Notes: a model not told the origin generated them from the sequence alone. A DNA stretch of 64,000 nucleotides from Patescibacteria group bacterium (GCA_022868165.1 JALHYA010000001.1:12937-76936); one strand, 5' to 3'; positions 6,333 to 47,636 are shown, counted from the first letter of the stretch. Made by a program: numbers and translations.

Positions 6333-7154
6333 TTACACCTGAGCTATCAGCGAATCAAGCGCGTAGCGCCTCTTTAGAATGGAGCCTATTACCTGCCTTT
6401 GTTCGGGAGTGTCTATGTTGCCTTTGACGTTCGGGTCGGCTTTGGCAGCCTTAATCATATTTTCCACATCTTCCTCTTTAACCTTGATGCTCTCGCTTTC
6501 GGCAATTTTGTTTAGGATTAAATCAAGGGCGATGGCTTCTTTGGCCTGTTTTTCATAGTCTTGCCGCAGCGTTTCCGGGGTTTTGCCGATGGATGTCAAA
6601 TAGCTCTCAAGAGAAAGCCCGAGTTTCTCGATTCTGGCCAGAAGATTGGAAATTCTGGAATCCGCCTCATCATGGATAAGAAGGTGAGGAATATCCAGTT
6701 TTACCGATTCCAACAGGGCCCCAACGACTATCTGCTCCTTTTCCTCCTTTGTCGGTTCTTTAGTAATGCTTTTTGAGCGTAGCTCCCCCGCAATTATCTT
6801 TTTATAATCGCCCAGCTCAACAGCCGGGAGTTCGCAGGTAACTGCCCTCACTTGCCAGACCTCGCCTTCTTTGGCCGAAACAAGCTCGAATTTGGGGTAA
6901 ATGGCCGGTTTAATTTTATATTCTACAATCGAATCGGCCAAAGCCTTTGGTAAAAGCGTTGATAGGGCCTTTTCGATAACCGTATTTTGCGGGATATTCT
7001 TCTCGACCAAATCCACGGGAGCTTTGCCTTTTCTGAACCCCGGAATTTCGGCATCTTTAGACAAAGCCTCAAGAGCCTCTTTTTTGGCTTTTCCGACCAA
7101 AACCCAAGGAAGGCTAAAGGTTATCTGAACATTGCCGTTGGCCTCTTTGGCCAT
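6333..7154 (-). CDS. tig: trigger factor (short form)
   Basis: GFRKGKAP ribosome-binding signature about 40 residues from the internal Met (MAKEANG...). The track ORF extends to 7229. The start was trimmed by aligning the position of GFRKGK. Confidence 0.65.
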   Translation of the reverse strand: MAKEANGNVQITFSLPWVLVGKAKKEALEALSKDAEIPGFRKGKAPVDLVEKNIPQNTVIEKALSTLLPKALADSIVEYKIKPAIYPKFELVSAKEGEVWQVRAVTCELPAVELGDYKKIIAGELRSKSITKEPTKEEKEQIVVGALLESVKLDIPHLLIHDEADSRISNLLARIEKLGLSLESYLTSIGKTPETLRQDYEKQAKEAIALDLILNKIAESESIKVKEEDVENMIKAAKADPNVKGNIDTPEQRQVIGSILKRRYALDSLIAQV

Positions 7155-8817: not shown

Positions 8818-9816
8818 TCAGAACCTCTTATAGAAATCAAGGTCGCTTAATATGGCCTGATTCCATAAAGGAAGCATATTGTGGTCGGAAGCGGGGTAGA
8901 GCTGGTAGTTCAAATCCAAGTTCAAGTTCAAGAGAGACTTGGCTAGATCGTCGCTCCATTTTACCGGAACGGATTGGTCGGCGGTCCCCTGGTCAAGCTC
9001 AATAGGAGCTTTTATCCGGTCCAAGTTGCCATGTATCGAGTAAAGATTCGGGTCGTAGAGCTCCTCAAAATTTGCGATTTCCGAGCGCAAGTACTTGCCC
9101 AAGTCCGGGCTGTCGTCAGTGTAATAAAGAATTGAATAGGGAAAGGGCTTTGAAACCGGCGCCCAAAGCACAGTGGGGATGTTTTTACCGGTTATCTCCA
9201 AGACAGTTAAGGCAATTTGGCCTCCGTTTGAATGGGCCCATATGAACGACCTTTTCTTGTCCCACTTTGAAACGGAGTCTAAGGATGCCATAACGCTCAT
9301 TACGGTTGTATATGTTTGAAATCTGGCCTCAAAAGTGCTGTTCGGCTCGGGGTCGGAATCTCCATAGCCCAAAAAGTCGGGCGCAACGGTAATATAGCCT
9401 TTTGAGGCAAAAACCTCGGCGCCGTGTTGGGTTCCCTCCCCTATCGTGTATTTTTCCTTGTCGACGTAGCCCCGAATCATAATAATTATCGGGAAGGGGC
9501 CTTCGCCTTTGGGCATATTTATCATCCCGCTTAGCTTTTTGGCAGGTTTGCCGGTTAATGTCGGGTCGAAATAATGAATGAACTCATAGGAGGTGAAGTT
9601 CGAAGTATCCTGGATAACCTTTCCGAGCTCGATCTTTCCTGCAGGGACATTGGCTTTGGACAAGTTTTCTATAGTGTATTTGTCCAGCGGTCTGGGTACG
9701 ATTTGGGCAATGGATTTTTTAAGTTTGGGTGAGGTAAAAAGAAGATTCAGACTCCAGCCCAGAGAAATAAAGAGAATTGCGCAAAGCGTATATAAAATGA
9801 CCTTTTTCATATTCAT
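8818..9816 (-). CDS. alpha/beta-hydrolase (S9/dienelactone-hydrolase-like) with signal anchor
   Basis: AHSNGG nucleophile elbow (GxSxG) and an N-terminal hydrophobic segment. Confidence 0.55.
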   Translation of the reverse strand: MNMKKVILYTLCAILFISLGWSLNLLFTSPKLKKSIAQIVPRPLDKYTIENLSKANVPAGKIELGKVIQDTSNFTSYEFIHYFDPTLTGKPAKKLSGMINMPKGEGPFPIIIMIRGYVDKEKYTIGEGTQHGAEVFASKGYITVAPDFLGYGDSDPEPNSTFEARFQTYTTVMSVMASLDSVSKWDKKRSFIWAHSNGGQIALTVLEITGKNIPTVLWAPVSKPFPYSILYYTDDSPDLGKYLRSEIANFEELYDPNLYSIHGNLDRIKAPIELDQGTADQSVPVKWSDDLAKSLLNLNLDLNYQLYPASDHNMLPLWNQAILSDLDFYKRF

Positions 9817-10103
9817 AGACCGTTTGTTTTCAACCTTTTTCTGTCCACTTTGTGCTTATGGATTTTTCTTCTTTTTGCGGCTTCGGGTCTTTTCCCTTCC
9901 GCATGGGATTTAGGTTTTCCTTTGTGCTTAGTCAGGTCTTCAAACATTTTAGCAGGGTCTATTTCTTCGCTTTTGTGCCTCCTTAGATACGAATCAACAG
10001 CTCTTTGTGCCCTGTCCTCATCGTTGGCGAAAAATCTTTTTAGATGTCTTGCGAAGTCGCTATGTCCGGGAATAAGTTCCGGTTCCCTCTCTACTGTTGC
10101 CAT
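9813..10103 (-). CDS. small basic hypothetical protein
   Basis: 96-aa Lys/Arg-rich ORF with host-like codon usage, divergent from the dinB operon. Confidence 0.4.
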   Translation of the reverse strand: MATVEREPELIPGHSDFARHLKRFFANDEDRAQRAVDSYLRRHKSEEIDPAKMFEDLTKHKGKPKSHAEGKRPEAAKRRKIHKHKVDRKRLKTNGL

Positions 10104-10156: not shown

Positions 10157-10185
10157 TTGACTTCGGGTTTTATTCGGATTATACC
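10157..10185 (+). promoter_or_regulatory. promoter of the ORF86-dinB operon with embedded TTCGGG-N5-TTCGG motif (candidate LexA box)
   Basis: TTGACT (10157-10162), spacer containing TTCGGGTTTTATTCGG (10162-10177), -10-like TTATAC (10179-10184). The ATG at 10195 implies a leaderless or very short leader. Confidence 0.5.
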
Positions 10186-10194
10186 AATATTATA

Positions 10195-10455
10195 ATGATA
10201 CAAAAGATTTCGGTACCGGTATCGGTTGAACTGGTTTTCGACCACAAAACCCGCAAGGTCTTTCCGAGAAGGGTTCTCTGGGAAGGCAAGCTCTACCCTA
10301 TCGTCAAGGTTGGCCTTCACCACACGTTTCGTGAGGGTCGCACATTATTTCATGTTTTCTCCGCTTCTTCGCAAACCTTGTTTTTTAGGCTGGTTCTCAA
10401 TACCGACAATTTGCAGTGGAGATTGGAGGAAATTTCCGATGGACTCCCCGACTGA
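10195..10455 (+). CDS. small protein (86 aa) encoded first in the dinB operon; function unknown
   Basis: The ATG lies about 10 nt after the -10 element, the same architecture as lexA. Host-like codon usage. dinB starts 30 nt after its stop. Confidence 0.45.
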   Translation: MIQKISVPVSVELVFDHKTRKVFPRRVLWEGKLYPIVKVGLHHTFREGRTLFHVFSASSQTLFFRLVLNTDNLQWRLEEISDGLPD

Positions 10456-10486: not shown

Positions 10487-11701
10487 ATGCATATGGATTT
10501 GAATTCCTGCTTTGCGACCATCGAGCAGCAGGCAAATCCCCTGCTTCGCGGAAAACCCGTAGTCGTTGCGGCCTATACGACACCCTCGGGTTGTATTGTT
10601 GCCCCATCGGTCGAGGCCAAAAGATTGGGAATTAAGGTCGGAATGAGGGTGAAAGACGGAAGATTTCTCTGCCCGGATTTGATTGTTCTTCCCCCGGACC
10701 CCTGGAAATACAGAAATGTCCACCTGAGTTTAAGAAGAATAGTTTCCGAATATACTAGCAATTTTTCCCCAAAATCGATTGACGAGTTTGTGCTCAATAT
10801 GGAAGGCTACCCGGCCTATCGGAAAGGCATGCTTAAGCTCGCCAGAGAGATTAAGAGGCGGATTAAGGCCGAAGTCGGAGATTGGCTAACGGTTTCCGTG
10901 GGAGTTGCCCCAAACAGGTTCCTGGCCAAAACCGCGGCGGGCTTACACAAACCCGACGGACTCGACGAGATTAATAAAAATAACTATGCGGATGTGTATT
11001 CCAAGCTCTCTTTGACCGATTTATGCGGGATTAAAGAGCGAAATGCCATAAGACTGGGGAGTATGGGCATATATAGTGTTTTGGACTTCTATAACGCACC
11101 ACTTTGGAAGTTGAAGGCGGCTTTTAGCTCAATTTTGGGCTACTACTGGTATTTGCGGCTTCGAGGTTGGGAGATTGACGATGTGGAGTTTGCGAGGCGT
11201 TCTTACGGCAATTCCTTTGCCCTGCCCAAGCCTTTGCAAACGGTCGAGGAGCTCTCCCCTGTTCTTTCCAAACTTGTCGAGAAAATGGGGGCAAGACTGC
11301 GTCATGCGGGGTATAAGGCCAAAGGGGTGCATTTATCCGTAGTTTATCGGGATTGGAGCTTCTGGCATAAAGGTGCTATAACCTCGAAAGTTTTGTTCGA
11401 TTCGCGCGATATTTACAAGGAAGCTTTTAAACTCTTAGTGAGTTGTCCTTACAGAAAACCCGTGCGGCAGCTTGCGGTTTCTTGCTTCAATCTCCTCACG
11501 CGCCCTGAGTTGCAAATGGAACTTTTTGAGGATGTTGTCAAAAAAGAAAAAATTGTAGAGGCGGTGGACAAGGTTAACGAGCGCTGGGGGCACTTTATCA
11601 TAACGCCCGCGAGAATGCTGGGGACCGGCGGGGTTGTAATGGACAGAATTGCCTTTGGAGGCGTAAAAGAACTCGAAGAATTCACCCTAAATTCCGGATA
11701 A
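10487..11701 (+). CDS. dinB: DNA polymerase IV (Y-family, DinB)
   Basis: MHMDLNSCFATIEQ aligns with the DinB N-terminus (MDCFFAAVE), with Y-family motifs throughout. The track ORF begins at 10226, but the conserved N-terminus starts at Met88 (10487). Confidence 0.8.
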   Translation: MHMDLNSCFATIEQQANPLLRGKPVVVAAYTTPSGCIVAPSVEAKRLGIKVGMRVKDGRFLCPDLIVLPPDPWKYRNVHLSLRRIVSEYTSNFSPKSIDEFVLNMEGYPAYRKGMLKLAREIKRRIKAEVGDWLTVSVGVAPNRFLAKTAAGLHKPDGLDEINKNNYADVYSKLSLTDLCGIKERNAIRLGSMGIYSVLDFYNAPLWKLKAAFSSILGYYWYLRLRGWEIDDVEFARRSYGNSFALPKPLQTVEELSPVLSKLVEKMGARLRHAGYKAKGVHLSVVYRDWSFWHKGAITSKVLFDSRDIYKEAFKLLVSCPYRKPVRQLAVSCFNLLTRPELQMELFEDVVKKEKIVEAVDKVNERWGHFIITPARMLGTGGVVMDRIAFGGVKELEEFTLNSG

Positions 11702-12375: not shown

Positions 12376-13140
12376 TTACACTTTAAGTTCAAGGCCATCA
12401 AAGGCGATTCCGAATTTGTCTCCGCCGTGTTCTTTCACAGAAGCTTCCAGCTTGCCATGTGTGTCTGTTTTATGGCCGATATTCGTAAAAAGAACCCTTT
12501 TCGCGTTAACATCCTTGCCAAATCTTAAGCCTTCCTCTATGGTTTCGTGGCCTTTTGCCTGACCATATGATGTTTTGGAAGAGCCGTCCAATATTGCCAC
12601 CTCTATGTCTCCCATCTCTTTTCGGGAAGAAGGGATAATTCTTCTAAATTCCGGTGCATAAACAATAGGCTTCGGGGCTTTGAGTTTTATTGCATAGGCT
12701 TCTTCGGAGCCGTGCTCAACGGGAATCAGCCAGGCATAGGAGTCTTTAGAAAGGCCTATTTTTTCAAAGGGTTTTGCCTCGAGAGTATCGAAAGCCCGCA
12801 TGGAAATTCCTACAAGCCGTCTGGCTTTGGATAAGACTCCGCTTGAGGAAATTAGGGTTATCTTTGGGCCGTTATAGGTATGGCTTAGGTCATAGAGCCC
12901 AAAAATGTGGTCATCGTGGGCATGGGTAAGGATAATATGAGTAATTTTGGTAGGGTCAACATTGTGGGTTTTAATTTCTGTATAAATATCAGGTGAAGCG
13001 TCGAGAAGAATGTTTCGATTTACAAGAAGAGACGGTCTAAGCCGGGTGTCTTTCGGGTCTTGGGAGCTGCAGATTTCGCACTTGCAGCCAAGCCTGGGAA
13101 GAGGCCATCCTGAAGAGGTACCTAAAAAGAGGATTTCCAT
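12376..13140 (-). CDS. MBL-fold metallo-hydrolase
   Basis: HAHDDH motif. Start taken at Met25 (MEILFLG), because the track's N-terminal 24 residues are the reverse translation of tRNA-Leu. Confidence 0.7.
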   Translation of the reverse strand: MEILFLGTSSGWPLPRLGCKCEICSSQDPKDTRLRPSLLVNRNILLDASPDIYTEIKTHNVDPTKITHIILTHAHDDHIFGLYDLSHTYNGPKITLISSSGVLSKARRLVGISMRAFDTLEAKPFEKIGLSKDSYAWLIPVEHGSEEAYAIKLKAPKPIVYAPEFRRIIPSSRKEMGDIEVAILDGSSKTSYGQAKGHETIEEGLRFGKDVNAKRVLFTNIGHKTDTHGKLEASVKEHGGDKFGIAFDGLELKV

Positions 13141-26838: not shown

Positions 26839-27279
26839 CTATTTAATAATCCAGTAGATTAAAGAGCTGAAAAAGGACAAAACAAAGGAAAAGGCTACGA
26901 AAGCCAGAATTCCCGTAAAGGAGACTGCAGGAATATCGAACCATTTCGTAGTAAATCCAACAAAGCTGAAACTGAGAATTGTAAATCCCGGAACGATTAA
27001 AGTAACAATATAAAGAGTAATGGCCGAGGAGACCCACCTAAAAAGCCCGAACGTAAGAAGATTTATAGGCAGAAGTAAAATGCCGATAACGGGTTTGGCC
27101 AAGAGCGAAACAATAGTTAATCCCACACCGGCCAAAAACAAGTCTTCCCAGCCTTTGGCAAAAATCATCCCCTGCGCAATGCGCGAAACAACGAAAAGGG
27201 AAAATGTATCTATGACATAGTGCCGGATTATTCTCTTCAAGCTATTTTTAAGTATCGCCCGCAAAGTATGGCGTGTCAA
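26839..27279 (-). CDS. DUF360 / phage-holin-family-4-like membrane protein (paralog 2)
   Basis: 146 aa, multi-TM, VPGF/GF motifs similar to the 8458-8805 gene. Confidence 0.5.
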   Translation of the reverse strand: MTRHTLRAILKNSLKRIIRHYVIDTFSLFVVSRIAQGMIFAKGWEDLFLAGVGLTIVSLLAKPVIGILLLPINLLTFGLFRWVSSAITLYIVTLIVPGFTILSFSFVGFTTKWFDIPAVSFTGILAFVAFSFVLSFFSSLIYWIIK

Positions 27280-28619
27280 GAATTCGAGACAAACTCTACG
27301 AGACTTTTCTTAACAAGTTTGTGGTGATACATTCGGGCAAATCTGTGGGCCTCGTTTCTTATTCTTTGCAAAAGATTTAGGGCGGGCCCCTTCGAAAGAG
27401 CAATTTGGGCGAAACCATTATCGCTTGGAATTATTAATGTTTCGAACATTTTTGCCAACCCGACAATGGGAATATTTAGCTTGTCAAATATCAGGCGGAA
27501 AGCGTTTACTTGAGCTTTTCCTCCGTCGACAACTATCAAATCGGGTTTTCCCCAGCCCCTTAAGTTTGCGGCCCTTCTTCGTGCGACCTCCCTCATAGAA
27601 GAAATATCGTCCTGGCCTTTTGTTTGTTTTATTCTAAAATGTCGGTAAAAACTTTTGTCGGCCTCACCTGCGATAAAAGTTACCATGGAAGCGGTGGGAA
27701 AAGTTCCCGTAAGGTGGGCAACGTCAAAACACTCAATTCTGGAAATTTTCCCTGGTAATTTAACATGTTTGGAAATTATCGACGTTAAAACTTGAAGCTC
27801 TTGCTCGCGGATATCCTCTGCAAGATTTGGATTTTGCAAAAACCGGGAAACTTCGGTAACAGGCTGGGTAATGTAATCAAGACGTTCGACCTGCGAACGA
27901 ACGAGGACGGCATCTTCATATTTTTCCTTTGCCGAAAATTCCCTCATTTCTCTAGTCAGATCGTTTCTGACACTATGCATCTCTCCCTGAAGAATTTTTC
28001 TTATTCTGGCAATATTTTTTCTGTATTTTCCTCTCAACAATTCCTTATCCTTGCCGTCTTTAAATAACTCTATGGCGTTTGGACAGGGGTTGCATAATCC
28101 TATGTGGTTGTATAAACAGGGCCTCTTGCCTAATTTATGGTCGGAAAACGGAAAGATTTTCCTGACCATTTTTAAGACTCCCCGAACGGCTGTTGATGAA
28201 GGAAAGGGACCGAAATAATCGACGACTTTTTCGTTCTCTTCGATTTTCCTTGAAGTAAGAACCCTGGGATATTTTTCTTTGGTTATCTTTATATAGAGAG
28301 GGTGCTTATCGTCTTTTAGTGCAAAGTTGTATCTCGGCTTATTGGCACGGATTAGTTTGGCTTCAAGAAGCAGAGCCTCCAGTTCCGAACCAACGACAAT
28401 AAAAGAAAAGGTATCGGCCTCACTTACCATTTTAGAGGTTTTGGGCGCCAGATTTATTGTGAAGTAGGAATTGAGCCTGCTTTTGAGATTAACTGCCTTA
28501 CCTATATATAACGGTGTGTTTTTCTGCCAGAAGATATATATTCCGGCGTTTTCCGGAATTTTCCTAAGGCTTTGTTTGAGGTTGGGAAACCTCCGGAGGA
28601 TTTTTAATTGATTGCGCAT
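27276..28619 (-). CDS. uvrC: excinuclease ABC subunit C (short form)
   Basis: N-terminal GIY-YIG (GIYIFW...LYIGKAVNLKSRLNSYF) and UvrC endonuclease domain (RIECFDVAHLTG). The track start overlaps the upstream gene by about 56 bp, so the true start may be later. Confidence 0.8.
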   Translation of the reverse strand: MRNQLKILRRFPNLKQSLRKIPENAGIYIFWQKNTPLYIGKAVNLKSRLNSYFTINLAPKTSKMVSEADTFSFIVVGSELEALLLEAKLIRANKPRYNFALKDDKHPLYIKITKEKYPRVLTSRKIEENEKVVDYFGPFPSSTAVRGVLKMVRKIFPFSDHKLGKRPCLYNHIGLCNPCPNAIELFKDGKDKELLRGKYRKNIARIRKILQGEMHSVRNDLTREMREFSAKEKYEDAVLVRSQVERLDYITQPVTEVSRFLQNPNLAEDIREQELQVLTSIISKHVKLPGKISRIECFDVAHLTGTFPTASMVTFIAGEADKSFYRHFRIKQTKGQDDISSMREVARRRAANLRGWGKPDLIVVDGGKAQVNAFRLIFDKLNIPIVGLAKMFETLIIPSDNGFAQIALSKGPALNLLQRIRNEAHRFARMYHHKLVKKSLVEFVSNS

Positions 28620-30459
28620 TTTTTAGAAAAAACTTGGCGTAAATTTTAAATAAAGAAACCCTTTTTATTCTCAACACTACTATCCCGACGAGAATGGCAA
28701 AAATGAGAAATATTGCCAAAAGATTATAGATTATAACTTGACTCTTGAATGTGGGAATCTCAACCTTCTGGTCGAGAAGCAAAATCGTTATTTTATCGGG
28801 AGTTTTATTTCCCAAAAAGCTGAAAGGCACGCTAAGAACCATATCATAGGTAGCATATGGAGGAAAGACATCGATTGTTGTTCCTTGTGAACTTTTTGAA
28901 TCAAAATCAATTTCCGGAGTGAGATTATAGAGCGCAACCGGTCCCGGATTATATACCTTGACAAGAATTTTATTGTTGAAAAAAGGTAAAGGCTGATTGT
29001 TTACGTATGAAATTTGCGGATAACTTACTCTTTTGTCCGGCAAATTACCGAAATTTACAAAGACGTCTTTCTGCGGATTTGTCCCAAGTTTATAAGAGCC
29101 CGGCGGATAGGGCTTAACGGGGCTTTCGCCGTGAATTACAAAGGTGAAGTGTCTAAGATCCAGCTTACTAAAGTAGTCGATACCTTTGGTTGTCGAGCCC
29201 CATGTGGGGTCAACCGGAATCCAGACCTGTTTTTCTTTATCCCAATATTCCGGCCATGCGTGCAAAACATCGGCAACTAAAGAAAGCGGTTGGATTTGGG
29301 GATTTTCAGTATATGCATAGCCGTTAATTTCTCTTGCGGGAATGCCTGCCGCCCTAGAAAGAGCAATAAATAGGTCCGTGAATTCCATACATATTGCATT
29401 TTTGGGATTGAGGAGTGCCTTTTTGGCCCCTAATCTCTCAACATTCGGTTTAACCCTGCCGTAATCATAAGAAAGAGTTGTAGTTACATAGTCGTAAAGG
29501 AATTTTGGCGTCTGTAAACGTTTTGCCAACTCGACTATTTGAGGGTCGCTGCTTTGCCAATATTGGGTCTCATTGAGGTCGGTTTTTAAAACATCTTCGG
29601 AAGATTTCATAAACGGTCTAAATCCCGAAAATATTTGAACGCTGCCGGTTGCTTTAACGTCAATTCTTTCCCGAGGTTTTAATTCATAGGAAGCAATCCA
29701 ATTGCCGTCCGGGTCTAAGGAAATTTTTATTGGAGCAGGAGAAATTGTCGAGTAATACATCTTTTGGAAGGCGGTATCGGGAGGAATTGCGATATCCGCA
29801 AGAGAGCTTTTGCCCAGTGGATTTTCGAGGTGATAATTTAAAACGAAAGAAAAAACCTGAAAATCTCCGAATCCGGCTGTGACACCGCTTCTTCCCATAT
29901 CTTCCTGGCCGTATGAATAAACCAAAAAATTACCCTGGGGACTTACCTTTGCGGGCTTTGGAGAAATGTACGCTTCCTTTCCAAAAGAATTCGGGACATA
30001 AATATTTACAGCGTAGCTGCGGTACGATGTGCCGGTGGCTATTCTCGGGATTGAGATTTCCCAAATCTCCCCGGTTTTGACTGCAAAAGAGTCTTCGTCA
30101 AAAGAAACAGAGAAGGTCCGCGAATTTCCTTTACCCACAACGGAATCGGGGAAGTTTATTGTGATATCGTCCTTTCCGCCCATTTTATTTTCAGAAAACG
30201 GCAGTGGGGCCCCGTTTTGCAAAGCTTGGATATTTTTCGGAGAAAGATTTTCCAAGGAGAGAGTATAGGATGTGGCGTAAATGTTGGTCAGGGCATTGAT
30301 AAGTGTTACGTTGTTAACTACGGTGGTTTTACCACTGGGAGCGATCTTATAATCAACCCTGACATCCGTTACAAATTCCCCTTCGGCTTGGACAAAAGAA
30401 GGTTTAATCGCCAGTGCCGTGAGAAAAAAAAGGAGAAAAAGAATAATTTTCTTTAACAT
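28564..30459 (-). CDS. secreted transglutaminase-like domain protein
   Basis: NAICMEFTDLFIALSRAAGIPAR (transglutaminase-like Cys motif). Signal peptide from Met46 of the track ORF. Confidence 0.55.
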   Translation of the reverse strand: MLKKIILFLLFFLTALAIKPSFVQAEGEFVTDVRVDYKIAPSGKTTVVNNVTLINALTNIYATSYTLSLENLSPKNIQALQNGAPLPFSENKMGGKDDITINFPDSVVGKGNSRTFSVSFDEDSFAVKTGEIWEISIPRIATGTSYRSYAVNIYVPNSFGKEAYISPKPAKVSPQGNFLVYSYGQEDMGRSGVTAGFGDFQVFSFVLNYHLENPLGKSSLADIAIPPDTAFQKMYYSTISPAPIKISLDPDGNWIASYELKPRERIDVKATGSVQIFSGFRPFMKSSEDVLKTDLNETQYWQSSDPQIVELAKRLQTPKFLYDYVTTTLSYDYGRVKPNVERLGAKKALLNPKNAICMEFTDLFIALSRAAGIPAREINGYAYTENPQIQPLSLVADVLHAWPEYWDKEKQVWIPVDPTWGSTTKGIDYFSKLDLRHFTFVIHGESPVKPYPPGSYKLGTNPQKDVFVNFGNLPDKRVSYPQISYVNNQPLPFFNNKILVKVYNPGPVALYNLTPEIDFDSKSSQGTTIDVFPPYATYDMVLSVPFSFLGNKTPDKITILLLDQKVEIPTFKSQVIIYNLLAIFLIFAILVGIVVLRIKRVSLFKIYAKFFLKNAQSIKNPPEVSQPQTKP

Positions 30460-30464
30460 CAACT

Positions 30465-33440
30465 TTAGTATATTAGATTGCGCAGAAGTTGCCCAGTATA
30501 CGACTTCTGGGACTTTGCAATATCTCTTGTTGTCCCTTTTGCGACAACCTCTCCCCCATTGTCCCCTCCTTCCGGGCCCAAATCTATAATCCAATCGGCA
30601 TTTTTAATTACATCCGGATTATGCTCGATGATAAATACCGAATTACCCCTCGAAACCAGAAGCTTAAGTACCTTCAAAAGTTTTTCGATATCGGCAAAAT
30701 GAAGACCGGTGGTGGGTTCGTCGAGAATATAAACCGTCGAACCGGTGGCCTTTTTGGAAAGTTCGGAAGCAAGTTTTACCCTTTGTGCCTCTCCACCCGA
30801 CAGAGTTGTAGCCGGCTGGCCCAGTTCCATGTAGCCTAGGCCGACTTCTTCCAAGGTCTCGAGTTTGCCAACTATTTGGGAGTGGGCATGGAAAAATTCC
30901 TTTGCTTCCGTTACGGTCAAGTTTAAAACTTCGGAAATATTTTTGCCTTTATATGAAATTTCCAGCGTTTGATTGTTGTATCTTTTTGCTTGGCAGACTT
31001 CGCAGGTCACCCAAATATCGCTCATAAACTGCATTTCTATCTTTATTTGCCCCTGGCCTTCACAAGCTTCGCACCTTCCGCCTTTGACGTTGAAAGAAAA
31101 TCTTCCTTTCTTAAATCCCAAGGACTTGGCATCTTTTGTTAACGCATAAACATCGCGGATGGGGCCAAAAACCCCCGTATATGTTGCGGGATTGCTTCTG
31201 GGAGTTCTTCCGATTGGCGACTGGTCAATTAAAATTACCTTGTCGACATTATCTACACCTTCCATAGATTTAAACTTTCCCAACTCTCCCCTATAAAAAG
31301 GATTTAACTTTTCCGAAAGAGCAGGAAAAAGAGTTTCAACCAGTAATGTGGACTTACCGCTCCCCGAAACTCCTGTAATTACAACAAATTTTGAAAGAGG
31401 AAACTCTACATTTATGTTTTTAAGATTAAATTGATTGCAGCCGACAAGGGTGAGAGAAGCTGGAAGATTGAGATTAGAGGCTGGATTCTGAAGTTGGAAG
31501 TTAGAGCGAATCGAACTTCTAGCCTCGTCATCAAACATCCAGTTTCCAACATCTATCTTCCTTTTTCCCGACAAATACTGTCCTGTTAAAGACTTTGGAT
31601 TTTTTGATATTTGAGACGGCGTCCCTTCGGCAACAAGAATTCCTCCGTCTCGTCCGGCTCCGGGTCCAAAATCAAAAACATGGTCTGCCTGTTCAATCAT
31701 TTGCCTGTCGTGTTCGACAACAATTACAGTGTTTCCCAGATCCCTGAGCCTTTTAAGGGTATCGATAAGTTTTTGGTTGTCGCGCATATGAAGACCGATT
31801 GTTGGCTCATCCAATACATACAATACTCCCGTAAGGCCGGAGCCGATTTGAGAGGCGAGACGGATTCTCTGCGCCTCCCCGCCCGAAAGCGTTCCTGCTT
31901 CTCTGGAAAGAGTTAAATATTCAAGACCCACTGCTTTGAGAAAATTGAGTCGGGAAGAAATTTCCTTATGAATTAATCTTGCAATTTCTTTTTCTCTTTC
32001 GTTCAATATAGAAGGAAGCTTTTCTATCCACTCGGCGGCTTTTGTTATCGAGAAATCCGTAACTTGGGAAATGGAAAGCTCATTAATGGTTATTCCCAAA
32101 GCTTCCTTTTTAAGTCTTGCTCCGTTGCATACTTCGCACAATCTTTCCCTCATATACTTCTCTATTGCCATTCTTATGTAATCGGATGTAGACTCCACGT
32201 GCCTTCTTTCGAGTTCGGGAACGACTCCGAGCCATTTTGCCCAAATAAAAGTGTCTTTCCCGAAACGATTTCTTCCAAAAACCTGATAAAGTTTGTCTCC
32301 GGTTCCGTAAAGAAGAATAATTTTTTGCTCTTTTGTATAGGAAGAAATTGGAGCCCGCGGGTTTATTCCGTTTTCCTCACACATCTTAAAAACTATCCGG
32401 GAAAACCACGTTTCGTGTTCAAACATAGAAGCAAACGGCAAAATTCCTCCTTCGGTTATCGATAGCATCTCGGAAAAGATGAGATGAGGTTCGACTTTGA
32501 GTATTTTTCCCAGACCCGAACAATTCGGACAAGCTCCGTATGGGGAATTAAATGAAAATGTTCTCGGTTCGACCTCCGGAATTTGAATATTGTCTACCGG
32601 ACAGGCGAATTTTTCGGAAAAAAGATGGTCCGTGAATTTTTTTGGATATTCCGGCAATTCAAATCCTTTGTCTAATATTTGAGAAAGAATTATGTTTCCG
32701 TCGGACAGTTTAAGGGCTTGTTCTATGGAATCGGAGATTCTTGATTTAAGATTTTCTTTAAAAATTGGGTCCTTGAGGTTGCTTAGGCTTAGACTTAATC
32801 TGTCGACCACCGCTTCGATTGAATGTTTGTTGGTTTTAATTAAAAGGAAATCCTCGGAGAGCGACTTAACTTGTCCGTCAACCCTTACTTGTCTGAATCC
32901 TTTTGCTTTGAGGTTTTCAAACAAAGAAGAAAATTCGCCTTTTCTTCCGGAAACAATAGGAGAAAGGACCAAAAACCAGGCTTTTTTGTCGGTTTTGGCA
33001 GTTTGTTCGATTAAAGTAAGACCTGCATTTACTATTTGGTCAACCGATTGTGAAGAAATTTCCCGTCCGCAAATAGGACAATGAGGATGACCGACTCGGG
33101 CAAATAATAGCCTCATATAATCGTAAATTTCCGTAATCGTTCCGACGATTGAACGCGGGTTTCGCGAAGTTGTCTTTTGGTCAATCGAAATCGCTGGGGA
33201 AAGACCTTCTATTGCATCCACATCGGGCTTTTCCATAACACCCAAAAACTGCCGGGCATAGGTGGAAAGGCTTTCTACATATCTTCTTTGACCTTCGGCA
33301 TAAATTGTGTCAAAAGCAAGCGAGCTTTTTCCACTACCCGAAACTCCCGTAAAAACAATCAATTTGTTTTTCGGAATATCCAAATTGATATTTTTGAGAT
33401 TATGCTGTCTGGCGCCCCTTATTTTGATTACGTTTTCCAT
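30465..33440 (-). CDS. uvrA: excinuclease ABC subunit A
   Basis: Two ABC ATPase modules (GVSGSGKSSL; LSGGEAQR), zinc-finger CxxC pairs. Start at Met15 (MENVIKIRGARQHNLKNI). Confidence 0.9.
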   Translation of the reverse strand: MENVIKIRGARQHNLKNINLDIPKNKLIVFTGVSGSGKSSLAFDTIYAEGQRRYVESLSTYARQFLGVMEKPDVDAIEGLSPAISIDQKTTSRNPRSIVGTITEIYDYMRLLFARVGHPHCPICGREISSQSVDQIVNAGLTLIEQTAKTDKKAWFLVLSPIVSGRKGEFSSLFENLKAKGFRQVRVDGQVKSLSEDFLLIKTNKHSIEAVVDRLSLSLSNLKDPIFKENLKSRISDSIEQALKLSDGNIILSQILDKGFELPEYPKKFTDHLFSEKFACPVDNIQIPEVEPRTFSFNSPYGACPNCSGLGKILKVEPHLIFSEMLSITEGGILPFASMFEHETWFSRIVFKMCEENGINPRAPISSYTKEQKIILLYGTGDKLYQVFGRNRFGKDTFIWAKWLGVVPELERRHVESTSDYIRMAIEKYMRERLCEVCNGARLKKEALGITINELSISQVTDFSITKAAEWIEKLPSILNEREKEIARLIHKEISSRLNFLKAVGLEYLTLSREAGTLSGGEAQRIRLASQIGSGLTGVLYVLDEPTIGLHMRDNQKLIDTLKRLRDLGNTVIVVEHDRQMIEQADHVFDFGPGAGRDGGILVAEGTPSQISKNPKSLTGQYLSGKRKIDVGNWMFDDEARSSIRSNFQLQNPASNLNLPASLTLVGCNQFNLKNINVEFPLSKFVVITGVSGSGKSTLLVETLFPALSEKLNPFYRGELGKFKSMEGVDNVDKVILIDQSPIGRTPRSNPATYTGVFGPIRDVYALTKDAKSLGFKKGRFSFNVKGGRCEACEGQGQIKIEMQFMSDIWVTCEVCQAKRYNNQTLEISYKGKNISEVLNLTVTEAKEFFHAHSQIVGKLETLEEVGLGYMELGQPATTLSGGEAQRVKLASELSKKATGSTVYILDEPTTGLHFADIEKLLKVLKLLVSRGNSVFIIEHNPDVIKNADWIIDLGPEGGDNGGEVVAKGTTRDIAKSQKSYTGQLLRNLIY

Positions 33441-33496
33441 TTCCACGCAAAAAACGCATCGGATGGTACCGAAGCACTCCATTATATAACTAAATC

Positions 33497-35569
33497 TTAG
33501 AGATTTGTCTCTATTTCTTTTATCTTGTCCCTAACCTGCGCTGCCAATTCAAAATTCAAATCCTGCGCTGCAAGGCGCATTTCGGTTTTGAGTGTACGGA
33601 CTAAACGGTTTTTCTCCATCGGCGTTAAGGCTTCCATATCTAAATCCGGCAAAGTATCGTAAACGGAAGGTTTGCCGCCGAACATCCATGAATATTTGGG
33701 TTCTTCATCTTTTTCTATAAGTTTCTCTCGAATAGGTTTTTCGATGCTTCGGGGAGTTATGTGATACTTCTTATTCATCGCCAGCTGATACGCTCGCCTC
33801 CTTTCGACTTCGCTCAAGGCGCGCCGCATCGAGCCGGTAATTACATCGGCATACATAATTACGCGTCCCTCAACGTGTCTGGCGGCCCTACCCATTGTTT
33901 GGATTAATGTCACATCGCTTCTCAAAAATCCTTCCTTGTCCGCATCGAGAATTGCGACCAGAGAAACCTCGGGCAAATCAAGCCCCTCTCTAAGTAAATT
34001 GATTCCCACCAGAACATCATATTTTCCGGCTCTTAAATCGTCCAAAATATCCGTTCTGTCTAAAGTTTTAACATCCGAGTGAAGATAATGAACTTTTAGT
34101 CCCTGTTCGGCCAAATAAGCGGACAAGTCCTCCGCTGTTCTTTTTGTCAGAGTGGTAACCAGTGTCCTTTGCTTTTTGGCCGTTTGCTTTTTAATTTCTT
34201 CTATCGCGTCAGCCACCTGATTTTTCGTCGGTCTTATTTCCACTACCGGGTCCGGAATTCCGGTAGGTCGAAGAAGTTGTTCTACAACTCCGTTGTATGA
34301 TATATCATTATATGAGACATTGGCTTTCTTCGCTGAGTCTTTGGCCATTGATAGCTCCCATTCGTCGGGTGTTGCGCTTGTCGCAATAAAATTGGGAATC
34401 CTCCTCATAAACTCGTCGAACTTAAGAGGTCTATTGTCTATTGCTGCCGGCAAACGAAACCCGTAATCAACCAGGGTTTGCTTTCTTGATAAATCTCCCG
34501 CGTACATTCCGCGAATTTGAGGAAAAGTCATATGGCTTTCGTCAACAATAACCAGCCAATCCTTTCCGTAAGGATGGGTAAAGTAATCCAAAAGGGAATA
34601 CGGAGCATCTCCGGGAGCCCGTCCGTCGAAATATCTGGAATAATTTTCGATTCCCTTTACATACCCTACTTCCTGTATCATTTCCAAATCATACGTTACA
34701 CGCTGTTTTAACCTATGTGCCTCGAGTTCTTTTCCTTTTTTTGTGAGTTTGGCGACCTGTTTTTCCAAATCGCAATGGATTTGGGAAAAAACATCTTTGT
34801 TTTTTGAAGGGTCCGTCATAAAATGCTTAGCGGGGTAAAGAGTGAAATTGCAAGACGGATGTTGGAAGTTTGAAATTTCTTCCCCGCTAACAGGATTTAT
34901 ATATTTGGCTTCCTCAATTCTATCTTTTCCCAATTCGATCCTGATTCCTTCGTCTTGATATGCGGGGAAAATATCTATCGTGTCTCCGCGAACCCTGAAT
35001 GTTCCTCTGTGAAATCCGAAATCTCCCCTTTCGTACTGCAAATCGATTAAGCGGTCGATAATCTGTTCACGATTTATCTTCATTCCCTTTGAAAATTCAA
35101 AAACAAAATGGCCGTATTCTATTGGAGAGCCGATGTTATAAATACACGATACCGAAGCGACAACTATAGTGTCACTCCTTGTCAAAAGATTAGCGGTTGC
35201 CGCTAAACGAAGTTTATCGATAAGCTCGTTTATATCCGAATCTTTTTCGATATATGTATCAGTACTTGGGATATACGCTTCCGGCTGATAAAAATCGTAG
35301 TAAGAAACAAAGTAAGAAACGGCATTTTCAGGGAAAAAGTCCCTTAGCTCCTGATAAAGCTGTGCCGCCAGAGTTTTGTTGTGGGAAATAATTAAAGTAG
35401 GCCTCTGAAGTTTTTCGATAACATTGGCCATCGTAAATGTTTTTCCCGAGCCAGTAACACCCAAGAGGACCTGATATTTTTTGTTATCCATTACACCCTT
35501 GACCAATTTTTGAATGGCCTGGACTTGGTCAGGAATGGTTTTAAAACTCGAACGAAGTTTAAATTTCAT
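33497..35569 (-). CDS. uvrB: excinuclease ABC subunit B
   Basis: MKFKLRSSFK...LLGVTGSGKTF aligns with UvrB from its N-terminus. Confidence 0.9.
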   Translation of the reverse strand: MKFKLRSSFKTIPDQVQAIQKLVKGVMDNKKYQVLLGVTGSGKTFTMANVIEKLQRPTLIISHNKTLAAQLYQELRDFFPENAVSYFVSYYDFYQPEAYIPSTDTYIEKDSDINELIDKLRLAATANLLTRSDTIVVASVSCIYNIGSPIEYGHFVFEFSKGMKINREQIIDRLIDLQYERGDFGFHRGTFRVRGDTIDIFPAYQDEGIRIELGKDRIEEAKYINPVSGEEISNFQHPSCNFTLYPAKHFMTDPSKNKDVFSQIHCDLEKQVAKLTKKGKELEAHRLKQRVTYDLEMIQEVGYVKGIENYSRYFDGRAPGDAPYSLLDYFTHPYGKDWLVIVDESHMTFPQIRGMYAGDLSRKQTLVDYGFRLPAAIDNRPLKFDEFMRRIPNFIATSATPDEWELSMAKDSAKKANVSYNDISYNGVVEQLLRPTGIPDPVVEIRPTKNQVADAIEEIKKQTAKKQRTLVTTLTKRTAEDLSAYLAEQGLKVHYLHSDVKTLDRTDILDDLRAGKYDVLVGINLLREGLDLPEVSLVAILDADKEGFLRSDVTLIQTMGRAARHVEGRVIMYADVITGSMRRALSEVERRRAYQLAMNKKYHITPRSIEKPIREKLIEKDEEPKYSWMFGGKPSVYDTLPDLDMEALTPMEKNRLVRTLKTEMRLAAQDLNFELAAQVRDKIKEIETNL

Positions 35570-35588
35570 ACCCGAATCTCGCCCGAAA
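35570..35588 (-). promoter_or_regulatory. TTCGGG-N5-TTCGGG motif between the -10 and the uvrB ATG (candidate LexA box)
   Basis: In coding orientation: TCGTGATATAATTTTCGGGCGAGATTCGGGT immediately followed by ATG. Confidence 0.5.
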
Positions 35589-35612
35589 ATTATATCACGA
35601 AGCCCTTTCAGC

Positions 35613-36770
35613 CTAGAGCCTGTTAAGAAGAACGTCGATGGCGGATATTACTTCCTGTTTCTTTCTCTCCGGCCAGGAAGATTTGCTGATTCGGCCCCTT
35701 ATATTCCTAAGAACGCCTCGTATGTCCTGTCCCAAAGCCAGTTCCTTTGTTCTGTCGCTTTCTCTTGTATGGCGTTCAGGAAAAACAGGAATATGTTTTA
35801 TCGTGAAAGAATCTTTATTAGGCACAGCGATTCTCTGTAACTCGTTTTTTACTGTTTGTTCGTTGTGGTGCTCTAATTTTCGTAACGAGTCGACAAGCCA
35901 GGCTATCTGCGGCGTAGTAAGCCCACATCGATTGGAGTACTCGGCTATTGCTCTTTGTGCCTGAAAATTGTTCGGGAATCCGTCAACTATCTTATTAAAC
36001 TGCGGGGGTGTCAACGCCAAACCTCCTTTTATAAAACTGCCTGTCCTTACCCTTAAAACAAGATACGGGTCGGCCATATCCAAGGTCCTGAGCTGAAAAT
36101 ATATGTTTCCGGGCTCCATAAGCCAAGCTGATGCTTTACGACGAACCCACTCTTTTATTAAATCTGCATCGTTTCTTTCAAGACCGAGCTTGAAACCAGA
36201 GCTGTCATTTGTAGCAATTCCGAAAGCTTGGGTTACCGATATTAAATCTTTCCAGAGAGTTTCCCTCCAAGCTCCTTTCATCCAATAGGCAAGTCTTGCA
36301 AACCTCACGCTTTTTACCGAATTCACGGCAAGAATTCTTTGGTCGTATTTCTCTTCTTCGCTACATCCATATAAGACCGTGGAGCGAAGGGGTGTTTGCT
36401 TCCATAAGGCAACGGCTCTTGACAACTTTTCCCGGGAAATCGGATCCAGAAAGGAGCTTATTTCTGCCGTTACCATTTTAAGTCCGGCAACTCTGTGAAA
36501 TCCGTCGAGTGTCTCATAGCTCACCCCAAACTCTCCACTGCCTTCGATTGCCCTGTGAAGAGTATCTTGAGTCTGCCCCCACTCCCCGGTCATAGCCCGA
36601 CCTAAATCAAGAGCGTGCGCTTCGTCTATTGGAGTATCTTCGACAATAACGTCGGAAACCGGAATCCATTCCGTCCTGCTTACTTTTTCGCCCGTTCTTA
36701 TGCACTCACGAAGCAAATCCCTGGGGGAAAGTTCATACAAACTGGGATTGGTTTCTATTATCTCAGGCAT
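35613..36770 (-). CDS. ParB/Srx-like nuclease-domain protein, upstream of uvrB and divergent from lexA
   Basis: 385 aa. TLDGFHRVAGLKMV matches the DG.HR..A ParB/sulfiredoxin-fold motif. The rest is unassigned. Confidence 0.45.
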   Translation of the reverse strand: MPEIIETNPSLYELSPRDLLRECIRTGEKVSRTEWIPVSDVIVEDTPIDEAHALDLGRAMTGEWGQTQDTLHRAIEGSGEFGVSYETLDGFHRVAGLKMVTAEISSFLDPISREKLSRAVALWKQTPLRSTVLYGCSEEEKYDQRILAVNSVKSVRFARLAYWMKGAWRETLWKDLISVTQAFGIATNDSSGFKLGLERNDADLIKEWVRRKASAWLMEPGNIYFQLRTLDMADPYLVLRVRTGSFIKGGLALTPPQFNKIVDGFPNNFQAQRAIAEYSNRCGLTTPQIAWLVDSLRKLEHHNEQTVKNELQRIAVPNKDSFTIKHIPVFPERHTRESDRTKELALGQDIRGVLRNIRGRISKSSWPERKKQEVISAIDVLLNRL

Positions 36771-36822: not shown

Positions 36823-36851
36823 TTGACATCTTCGGGTTTTATTCGTATTGT
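36823..36851 (+). promoter_or_regulatory. lexA promoter with embedded TTCGGG-N5-TTCG motif (candidate LexA autoregulatory box); leaderless
   Basis: TTGACA (36823-36828), 17-bp spacer containing TTCGGGTTTTATTCG (36831-36845), -10-like TATTGT, and ATG at 36857 only 5-6 nt after the -10. Confidence 0.55.
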
Positions 36852-36856
36852 TAATT

Positions 36857-37480
36857 ATGGCGCCAATAATATACAAAAGGCAATCTCAAATACTTGATTT
36901 CATTAAGCAACACATCCAAACTACGGGCGGCGCTCCCACTTTAAGAGAAATTGCCGAAGCAATCGGCGTTTCATCTCTGGCTACCGTTCACGAACACCTT
37001 GAAGCGCTTGAGGCAAAAGGTTTAATAAAACGAAAAGCCGGCAAGGTCAGAACCATTGAACTCACTCAAGTGACCGAAGAGTTCTCGTCCGACGGAATGA
37101 ATGTTCCTATTCTCGGTTTTATTGCGGCCGGTGCTCCTATCGAGCCTTATACCGACCCAAATGCTTCTATGGAGATTCCTTCACCTTTTGTTTCGGGCAA
37201 AAAAAGGGTATATGTTCTTCAGGTGCGGGGCGAATCGATGATTGAGGAACAAATAAGAGACGGAGATTATGTTGTAATTGAGCAAACCGATAATGCGACC
37301 AACGGGGAAATCGTCGTTGCTTTACTCGATAACGGCATGGCTACCCTCAAAAGGTTCTTCAAGGAAGCCACCAGGATTCGCCTTGAGCCCGCCAACGCCA
37401 AAATGAGCCCCATATTCGTTAAAAACGTAAGAATACAGGGGAAAGTTGTTGGGCTTATCAGGAAATACGGGAGAAATTAA
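36857..37480 (+). CDS. lexA: LexA repressor
   Basis: MAPIIYKRQSQILDFIKQHIQ...LREIAEAIG (wHTH) and C-terminal S24 peptidase domain (VRGESM ... K). The track start at 36848 is a TTG, and the ATG is at 36857. Confidence 0.85.
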   Translation: MAPIIYKRQSQILDFIKQHIQTTGGAPTLREIAEAIGVSSLATVHEHLEALEAKGLIKRKAGKVRTIELTQVTEEFSSDGMNVPILGFIAAGAPIEPYTDPNASMEIPSPFVSGKKRVYVLQVRGESMIEEQIRDGDYVVIEQTDNATNGEIVVALLDNGMATLKRFFKEATRIRLEPANAKMSPIFVKNVRIQGKVVGLIRKYGRN

Positions 37481-47549: not shown

Positions 47550-47636
47550 ATGCTGACGCCAGGATTTGAACCTGGAACCTTCCGGGTGCGCACCGAGCGA
47601 GTTACCCGAACGCTCTTCCAATTGAGCTACGTCAGC
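47550..47636 (-). tRNA. atypical 87-nt tRNA-like gene (anticodon arm non-canonical; identity unresolved)
   Basis: Canonical acceptor GCTGACG/CGTCAGC, D-arm TAGCTCAATTGGAAGAGC and T-arm CCAGGTTCAAATCCTGG. The 36 nt between is GTTCGGGTAACTCGCTCGGTGCGCACCCGGAAGGTT, which has no standard 5-bp/7-nt anticodon arm; best alternative folds are given in the corresponding finding. TTGACA-17-TATATT promoter upstream. Confidence 0.4.

Follow-up and report, generated by a model that had tools for sequence, protein, structure and literature searches.

Predicted direct-repeat SOS boxes at the lexA, ORF86-dinB and uvrB promoters of a Woesebacteria-related member of the Patescibacteria

Three copies of a direct repeat in a 64-kb stretch of DNA from a member of the Patescibacteria (hereafter the window, meaning the whole 64,000 nucleotides analyzed; Table 1) are, with little doubt in our judgment, SOS boxes, that is, predicted direct-repeat operators of the LexA protein encoded in the same window. 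They precede lexA itself, a cassette formed by a conserved small gene (ORF86) and dinB, and uvrB; judged from the aligned copies, the consensus is better given as TTCGGGT-N4-TTCGGGT, with half-sites 11 bp apart, than as TTCGGG-N5-TTCG, the form in which an earlier reading of the DNA alone (the sequence-only reading) had reported it. That reading had proposed a LexA operator built as a direct repeat with an 11-bp period, and the proposal gains support from phylogenetic footprints in about 125 related loci, from models cross-validated reciprocally in them, and from the canonical LexA encoded nearby. An uncultured bacterium with a reduced genome would accordingly appear to keep a small, conventional SOS circuit that is read through a non-palindromic operator and that comprises, within 64 kb, lexA, one translesion polymerase cassette, and nucleotide excision repair. 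For annotation, the gain is a usable consensus and three mapped sites.

A pattern search of both strands of the window for TTCGGG-N5-TTCG returns exactly three matches, against 0.32 expected, in agreement with the earlier statement that there is no other full copy in the 64 kb; three or more such dyads were reached in 1 of 100 dinucleotide-preserving shuffles. The TTCGGG half-sites, by contrast, had been described as few, and they are not: the hexamer is over-represented in the window, with 76 copies on the two strands against 50.7 ± 7.2 in the shuffles, where 76 was never reached. Because the half-site is this common, specificity resides in the full dyad only. Other candidate positions were discarded: 6430, 14849, and 26616, considered as further full or near-full sites, lie inside coding sequence (26616 within a small secG-like ORF), and the weight-matrix matches at 1958, 7090, 12851, 18780, and 23362 have chance-level scores. 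The dyad is absent at the dnaE, polX-like, and DNA methylase genes of the window. The half-site at 47601 had been assigned to a tRNA-like gene, and a tRNA gene is confirmed there, namely an 86-nt tRNA-Ser (47551-47636, minus strand; ARAGORN; Rfam tRNA, 56.3 bits). Its anticodon, ACT, is an unusual one among bacteria, and the gene is one of 19 tRNA genes in the window.

Table 1. Predicted operators, promoter elements, and genes at the three sites (window positions; operators are predictions).
Feature	Position	Strand	Details and basis
ORF86-dinB -35-like hexamer, TTGACT	10157-10162	+	Read from sequence; shares its final base with the start of the operator
ORF86-dinB predicted operator, TTCGGGT-TTTA-TTCGGAT	10162-10179	+	Two half-sites, 11-bp period; read from sequence
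TTCGGGTTTTATTCGG at the ORF86-dinB promoter	10162-10177	+	
ORF86	10195-10455	+	ATG 10195; conserved 86-aa protein, function not assigned; first gene of the operon
dinB, Y-family DNA polymerase IV	10487-11701	+	Pfam IMS (3.7e-35) and IMS_C
uvrC	27276-28619	-	ORF list, Pfam
Transglutaminase-like gene	28564-30594	-	ORF list, Pfam
uvrA	30465-33482	-	ORF list, Pfam, uvrB-uvrA synteny in relatives (tblastn)
uvrB	33497-35569	-	Pfam UvrB_inter, UvrB, Helicase_C, UVR
uvrB predicted operator, TTCGGGC-GAGA-TTCGGGT	35570-35587	-	Both half-sites perfect; read from sequence
TTCGGGCGAGATTCGGG at uvrB	35571-35587	-	
uvrB extended -10, TGaTATAAT	35589-35597	-	-10 is 35589-35594; read from sequence
lexA promoter, TTGACA / 17-nt spacer / TATTGT	36823-36828 / 36846-36851	+	Consensus scan, 10/12 matches
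lexA predicted operator, TTCGGGT-TTTA-TTCGTAT	36831-36848	+	Read from sequence
TTCGGGTTTTATTCG at the lexA promoter	36831-36845	+	
lexA	36857-37480	+	207 aa; TIGR00498, Pfam Peptidase_S24 and LexA_DNA_bind

All three sites lie on promoters of DNA-damage genes, as had been claimed, and the identities of LexA, DinB, and UvrB are confirmed by Pfam and TIGR00498. The overlap of the lexA site with the gene's own promoter, also noted before, is now seen in a consensus scan as well: the site sits within the 17-nt spacer between TTGACA and TATTGT, with its second half-site overlapping the -10. The -10 ends 5 nt ahead of the lexA ATG, so the lexA mRNA is probably leaderless. At the ORF86-dinB cassette, the operator overlaps the -35-like hexamer by one base, in a TTGAC-TTCGGG junction that is also seen in the ORF86 promoters of relatives; TATACC (10180-10185) is an ambiguous -10, and this promoter goes uncalled in the consensus scan. 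The start of dinB is placed where the DinB proteins of relatives align from residue 1. The 436 homologues of ORF86 are without exception named hypothetical, and family searches give no family match for the protein; its structure model is confident and all-beta, and a fold-neighbor search found no neighbor. Where a DinB locus reaches far enough 5' of dinB, an ORF86 homologue (38-99% identity) almost always precedes dinB. The divergent ORF96 (9813-10103) was considered as a conserved, co-regulated partner and rejected, as it is present only in the closest relative.

Conservation was assessed in a LexA homologue set of 80 genomic loci (57 from Patescibacteria and 23 from outside the group) and in 80 further loci from a DinB metagenome scan, 68 of which were examined; 498 upstream regions from the LexA loci served as controls. 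The lexA promoters of 50-55 of the 57 related Patescibacteria carry TTGACA-nn-TTCGGGT-N4-TTnGTA in the -35/-10 spacer, and an unbiased count of gapped 4-mer pairs finds TGAC-N3-TTCG in 50/57 lexA upstream regions vs. 1/498 controls. The second half-site of these promoters is usually degenerate (TTTGTA or TTAGTA) on account of its overlap with the -10. The columns that flank the motif hold almost no information, and this difference between conserved motif columns and random flanks argues for selection. A conserved sequence inside the core promoter of lexA and dinB, with its second half overlapping the lexA -10, could in principle be a promoter element (spacer or discriminator) or an RNA leader element rather than a repressor site. 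We give this reading next to no credence: the pair TGAC-N3-TTCG occurs in that single control region of the same genomes, the register relative to the -35 varies (TTGACA-nn-TTCGGG at lexA, TTGAC-TTCGGG at ORF86), the uvrB copy lies 3' of the -10, and a second copy is found still further 3' in some loci. As to an RNA element, the motif at lexA and dinB would not be transcribed, and Rfam has no RNA family that matches at any of the three sites.

Upstream of dinB, the dyad TT[CT]G[GT]-N6-TT[CTA]G is found within 420 nt in 46 of the 68 metagenomic loci examined; in all but two of these, it lies 276-406 nt 5' of dinB, just ahead of the ORF86 homologue. The best copies read TTCGGGT-N4-TTCGGGT, and several loci have two copies. 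In an unbiased count, the top self-repeat signals are direct repeats with a period of 11 (TTCG-N7, TCGG-N7, CGGG-N7, and GGGT-N7), and comparison with the 498 control regions gives 17 vs. 10 for TTCG-N7, 13 vs. 2 for TCGG-N7, and 8 vs. 0 for CGGG-N7. Inverted 3- and 4-mer dyads are not comparably enriched in the promoters studied (p about 1e-4 to 1e-9, against 1e-15 to 1e-17 for the direct period-11 repeats), all of these p-values being inflated because orthologous promoters are non-independent samples; the earlier description of the box as non-palindromic is thereby sustained, and a palindrome concealed in these promoters was rejected as the operator.

A profile from orthologous promoters, which had been suggested as a check on the motif, was built separately for the two promoter sets and applied reciprocally. 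The dinB-derived matrix, run on 642 kb of lexA loci at a threshold of at least 14 bits, places 40 of its 46 matches no more than 400 nt 5' of lexA, and 3 of the 6 others are at uvrB or uvrA. Conversely, 35 of the 40 matches of the lexA-derived matrix in 368 kb of dinB loci are upstream of dinB, and 4 of the remaining 5 lie slightly further 5' of dinB. This reciprocal cross-validation marks the motif as a specific element common to the lexA and ORF86-dinB promoter sets. In the window, the dinB-derived model, which is independent of the lexA site, gives that site 23.2 bits (25.2 bits, partly circular, with the lexA-derived model), and the ORF86-dinB site scores 22.1 bits with the lexA-derived model; the 29.7 bits of the latter site with the dinB-derived model are likewise partly circular, as near-identical sites from orthologous promoters went into that model.

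With the dinB-derived model, the uvrB site reaches a low 12.8 bits, owing to a spacer (CGAG) that lacks the T-richness of the model's spacer. This score is within the chance range in the window, where the same model gives 15.3 bits at 7090 and 13.3 bits at 12851, and with the lexA-derived model the site falls outside the top 25 matches. The possibility thus has to be weighed that, of the three, the sites at lexA and ORF86-dinB are genuine operators and the uvrB copy is a chance or non-functional one, the more so as the CGAG spacer is unlike the T-rich spacer elsewhere and only about a third of relatives possess a dedicated uvrB-oriented site. We consider it unlikely. Both half-sites of the uvrB copy are perfect, and the site is one of 11 non-redundant exact copies of TTCGGG-N5-TTCGGG in 1.33 Mb of loci, all of which lie 1-23 nt directly 5' of the start of an SOS gene (ORF86, dinB, or uvrB), against about 0.1 expected by chance as a rough estimate. 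In addition, uvrB-oriented sites of period 11 with spacers that are not T-rich recur in relatives: TTCG-N7-TTYGG stands 23-42 nt ahead of the uvrB start in 12/44 relatives vs. 9/498 controls, and the 12 include 5 of the 9 genomes in which uvrB is more than 400 nt from lexA. The uvrB site of the window is positioned one base 3' of TGaTATAAT and one base ahead of the uvrB ATG (35569), and the layout of a TATAAT with the operator immediately after it is shared with two relatives (L009 and L017). We take the site as a real candidate operator, somewhat less certain than those of lexA and ORF86-dinB. Most relatives have uvrB and lexA as directly divergent neighbors 35-220 nt apart, and uvrB could share the lexA operator in these genomes.

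In the window, lexA and uvrB are separated by a 385-aa ORF (35613-36770, minus strand) of a base composition similar to its surroundings, which has no family match and no homologue in any of the 160 loci. The genes uvrB, uvrA, the transglutaminase-like gene, and uvrC are arranged head-to-tail on one strand and are followed by a holin-like gene and the secG-like small ORF. Since uvrA and uvrC follow uvrB on its strand, the uvrB operator may control the excision-repair set as a whole, and the four genes from uvrB to uvrC may be co-transcribed as one LexA-controlled unit. The -10 of uvrB is 19 nt from the ATG, and there is no Shine-Dalgarno sequence in between; in several relatives, TTCGGGT abuts the ATG. 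The distances from the -10 or the operator to the ATG suggest leaderless or very short-leader mRNAs for both lexA and uvrB.

The LexA of the window is 100% identical to a protein recorded at NCBI for a 'Patescibacteria group bacterium', and its nearest relatives (74-86% identity) are from Candidatus Woesebacteria. Woesebacteria belong to the Microgenomates, within the candidate phyla radiation. The protein matches the TIGR00498 equivalog with 204.8 bits (cutoff 110.95), and its AAG|AP, GESM, and TLKR segments align with the Ala-Gly cleavage site, the Ser, and the Lys of E. coli LexA; as judged from this alignment, it is a canonical LexA with the cleavage site and the Ser/Lys dyad intact. Hardly any variation is seen among the 57 relatives in the recognition helix, SSLAT(V/I)HEH(L/M/V). 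In the HMMER alignment, the interdomain linker (residues about 70-90) exceeds those of the E. coli and T. maritima LexA structures by 6 residues, and it may be speculated that the longer linker helps a symmetric LexA dimer to read a head-to-tail repeat. Many records of metagenome-assembled genomes (MAGs) titled 'uncultured Gammaproteobacteria bacterium' (L002, L008, L010, L016, L019, L022, and others), and one titled Alphaproteobacteria (L031), carry a LexA of the Woesebacteria type (74-86% identity), with lexA-uvrB-uvrA synteny in most of them; the proteobacterial titles of these records look mislabeled.

The three sites most likely work as in the standard SOS circuit. LexA would bind both half-sites of the direct repeat, which are 11 bp, or one helical turn, apart and hence lie on one side of the helix. 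The -35/-10 spacer is taken up by the operator at both lexA and ORF86-dinB, such that bound LexA would exclude RNA polymerase; at lexA, the position of the operator on the gene's own promoter would amount to autoregulation. At uvrB, bound LexA would mask the point where transcription starts and keep uvrB, probably along with the downstream uvrA and uvrC, from being initiated. When DNA is damaged, LexA would cleave itself under stimulation by RecA, and the three units would be released from repression. recA was considered as one more target, but no recA gene is present in the window or in any of the related Patescibacteria loci.

The 23 loci from outside the Patescibacteria were picked by protein similarity alone, including the recognition-helix pattern. 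The lexA promoters of Gemmatimonadota, Longimicrobium, Vicinamibacteria, and Nitrospinota (L058-L079) carry TTCG[GC]-N6-TTCG[GC] about 50-150 nt 5' of lexA, often in tandem and between the -35 and the -10, so that the term 'lineage-specific', applied to the motif in the sequence-only reading, was too strong. The LexA proteins of these groups have the helix SLATVH(E/K)HL in common with those of Patescibacteria. In Gemmatimonadota, where LexA has about 51% identity and the helix SLATVHEHL, the promoter reads TTGCAC-TTCGGcctgtnTTCGG-TTAGCGT, often with a second copy, TTCGGcccctTTTCGG, after it; the lexA promoter of Gemmatimonas aurantiaca itself carries TTCGGCCTGTnTTCGG. Vicinamibacteria and Nitrospinota (helices SLATVHKHL and SPATIHKHL) have TTTCG(C)-N5/6-TTTCGC between the -35 and the -10. 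Within the 5-12 kb of each locus, TTCG[GC]-N6-TTCG[GC] is found only at the lexA promoter; the sole exception is a Planctomycetales locus (L080), the LexA of which has a different recognition helix. Our literature search found no paper on a Gemmatimonadota LexA box, and the repeat at the lexA promoters of this phylum may be a modestly new observation. More tentatively, and with more doubt than confidence on our part, the Patescibacteria, Gemmatimonadota, Vicinamibacteria (Acidobacteriota), Nitrospinota, and Longimicrobium might share a cross-phylum class of box, TTCG-N7-TTCG, that goes with a nearly invariant SLATVH(E/K)HL helix and descends from one old LexA lineage, shared vertically or laterally, rather than from several inventions, the Gemmatimonadota and Vicinamibacteria boxes being undescribed.

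These loci also bear on which protein reads the motif. LexA is assigned to the sites from regulon logic and conservation, and since the link from protein to site is one that we infer, the motif might instead be the operator of a different, unnamed regulator of DNA repair. This is highly improbable, given that the motif is on the promoter of lexA itself in 50-55 of the 57 genomes, that in other phyla a repeat of this class accompanies the LexA homologues at their own promoters only, that the targets are classic SOS genes, that a direct-repeat LexA motif is reported for Patescibacteria in the citing literature, and that the sites show synteny with no regulator gene other than lexA. LexA remains the favored candidate for the binding protein.

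More distant ORF86-dinB cassettes (DinB 47-54% and ORF86 38-45% identity; L136-L138, L145-L148, and L160) have palindromes in the same -35/-10 spacer, for example AGTGAAC-taat-GTTCACT, TAAAC-N4-GTTTA, and GGAAAC-gtcc-GTTTCC. With a box of the GAAC-N4-GTTC type at the same promoter position, the cassette appears to be an SOS target under either type of box. This swap between direct repeat and palindrome at one and the same place in the promoter, the conservation of ORF86 as a partner of DinB, and the occurrence of TTCG-N7-TTCG at lexA promoters across phyla are possibly worth the attention of specialists.

A direct-repeat class of LexA motif is already described for the Patescibacteria, going by the way the original study is cited: PMC7739468 gives Sánchez-Osuna, Barbé and Erill (2017; Environ Microbiol 19:3465, PMID 28618189) among the cases in which LexA evolved recognition of a direct repeat, and Table S2 of PMC8565304 lists the same study as having validated the LexA of Cand. 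Collierbacteria GW2011_GWB2_45_17 (Microgenomates) and also a Parcubacteria LexA, the latter of which may use a different motif. The sequence-only reading had not recognized the motif as a described SOS box; as far as these citations go, that view has to be given up. Woesebacteria genomes that have been public since 2015 (GW2011 series: L023, L028, L029, L033, and L049) have the motif on lexA, and because of the direct-repeat citation, the Microgenomates validation, and these GW2011 lexA promoters, the motif is very probably the published one. Our literature search found no text that quotes the 2017 consensus; to judge from the citing papers, it is likely to be identical with TTCGGGT-N4-TTCGGGT, though the published consensus may, less probably, differ from it. 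The present analysis adds little beyond the 2017 description.

Among known systems, the closest is this 2017 motif, which, as cited, is from the same superphylum as the LexA of the window and is likewise a direct repeat. The LexA motif of Balneolaeota, TTACACATATTTTWTACATA, is also a direct repeat, established by comparative genomics and EMSA, and its regulon is likewise centered on lexA and translesion polymerases (both according to PMC7739468), but its half-site is unrelated in sequence to TTCGGGT and it belongs to a different phylum. The LexA box of Alphaproteobacteria, GTTC-N7-GTTC, stands as a direct repeat beside the palindromic boxes found elsewhere (PMC8565304, PMC4951493). The likeness to this box that had been pointed out holds in part: as in Alphaproteobacteria and Acidobacterium capsulatum, the boxes described here are direct repeats with an 11-bp period and a TTC core, whereas their conservation extends 3' (TTCGGGT) and not 5', the base ahead of TTC being C in 24, A in 12, T in 8, and the G of the alphaproteobacterial box in only 6 of 50 sites. 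The recognition helix of alphaproteobacterial LexA (SKSGIHRLI...) differs from the SSLATVHEHL of the window-type LexA. The box of Firmicutes and Actinobacteria, GAAC-N4-GTTC (the Cheo box), has a half-site core, (G)TTCG, that resembles the TTCG of the present motif, yet its two halves are inverted and stand 4 bp apart, an arrangement not comparably enriched in the promoters studied here. The recognition helix of Gram-positive LexA (STVHxHL), in turn, is similar to that of the window-type LexA.
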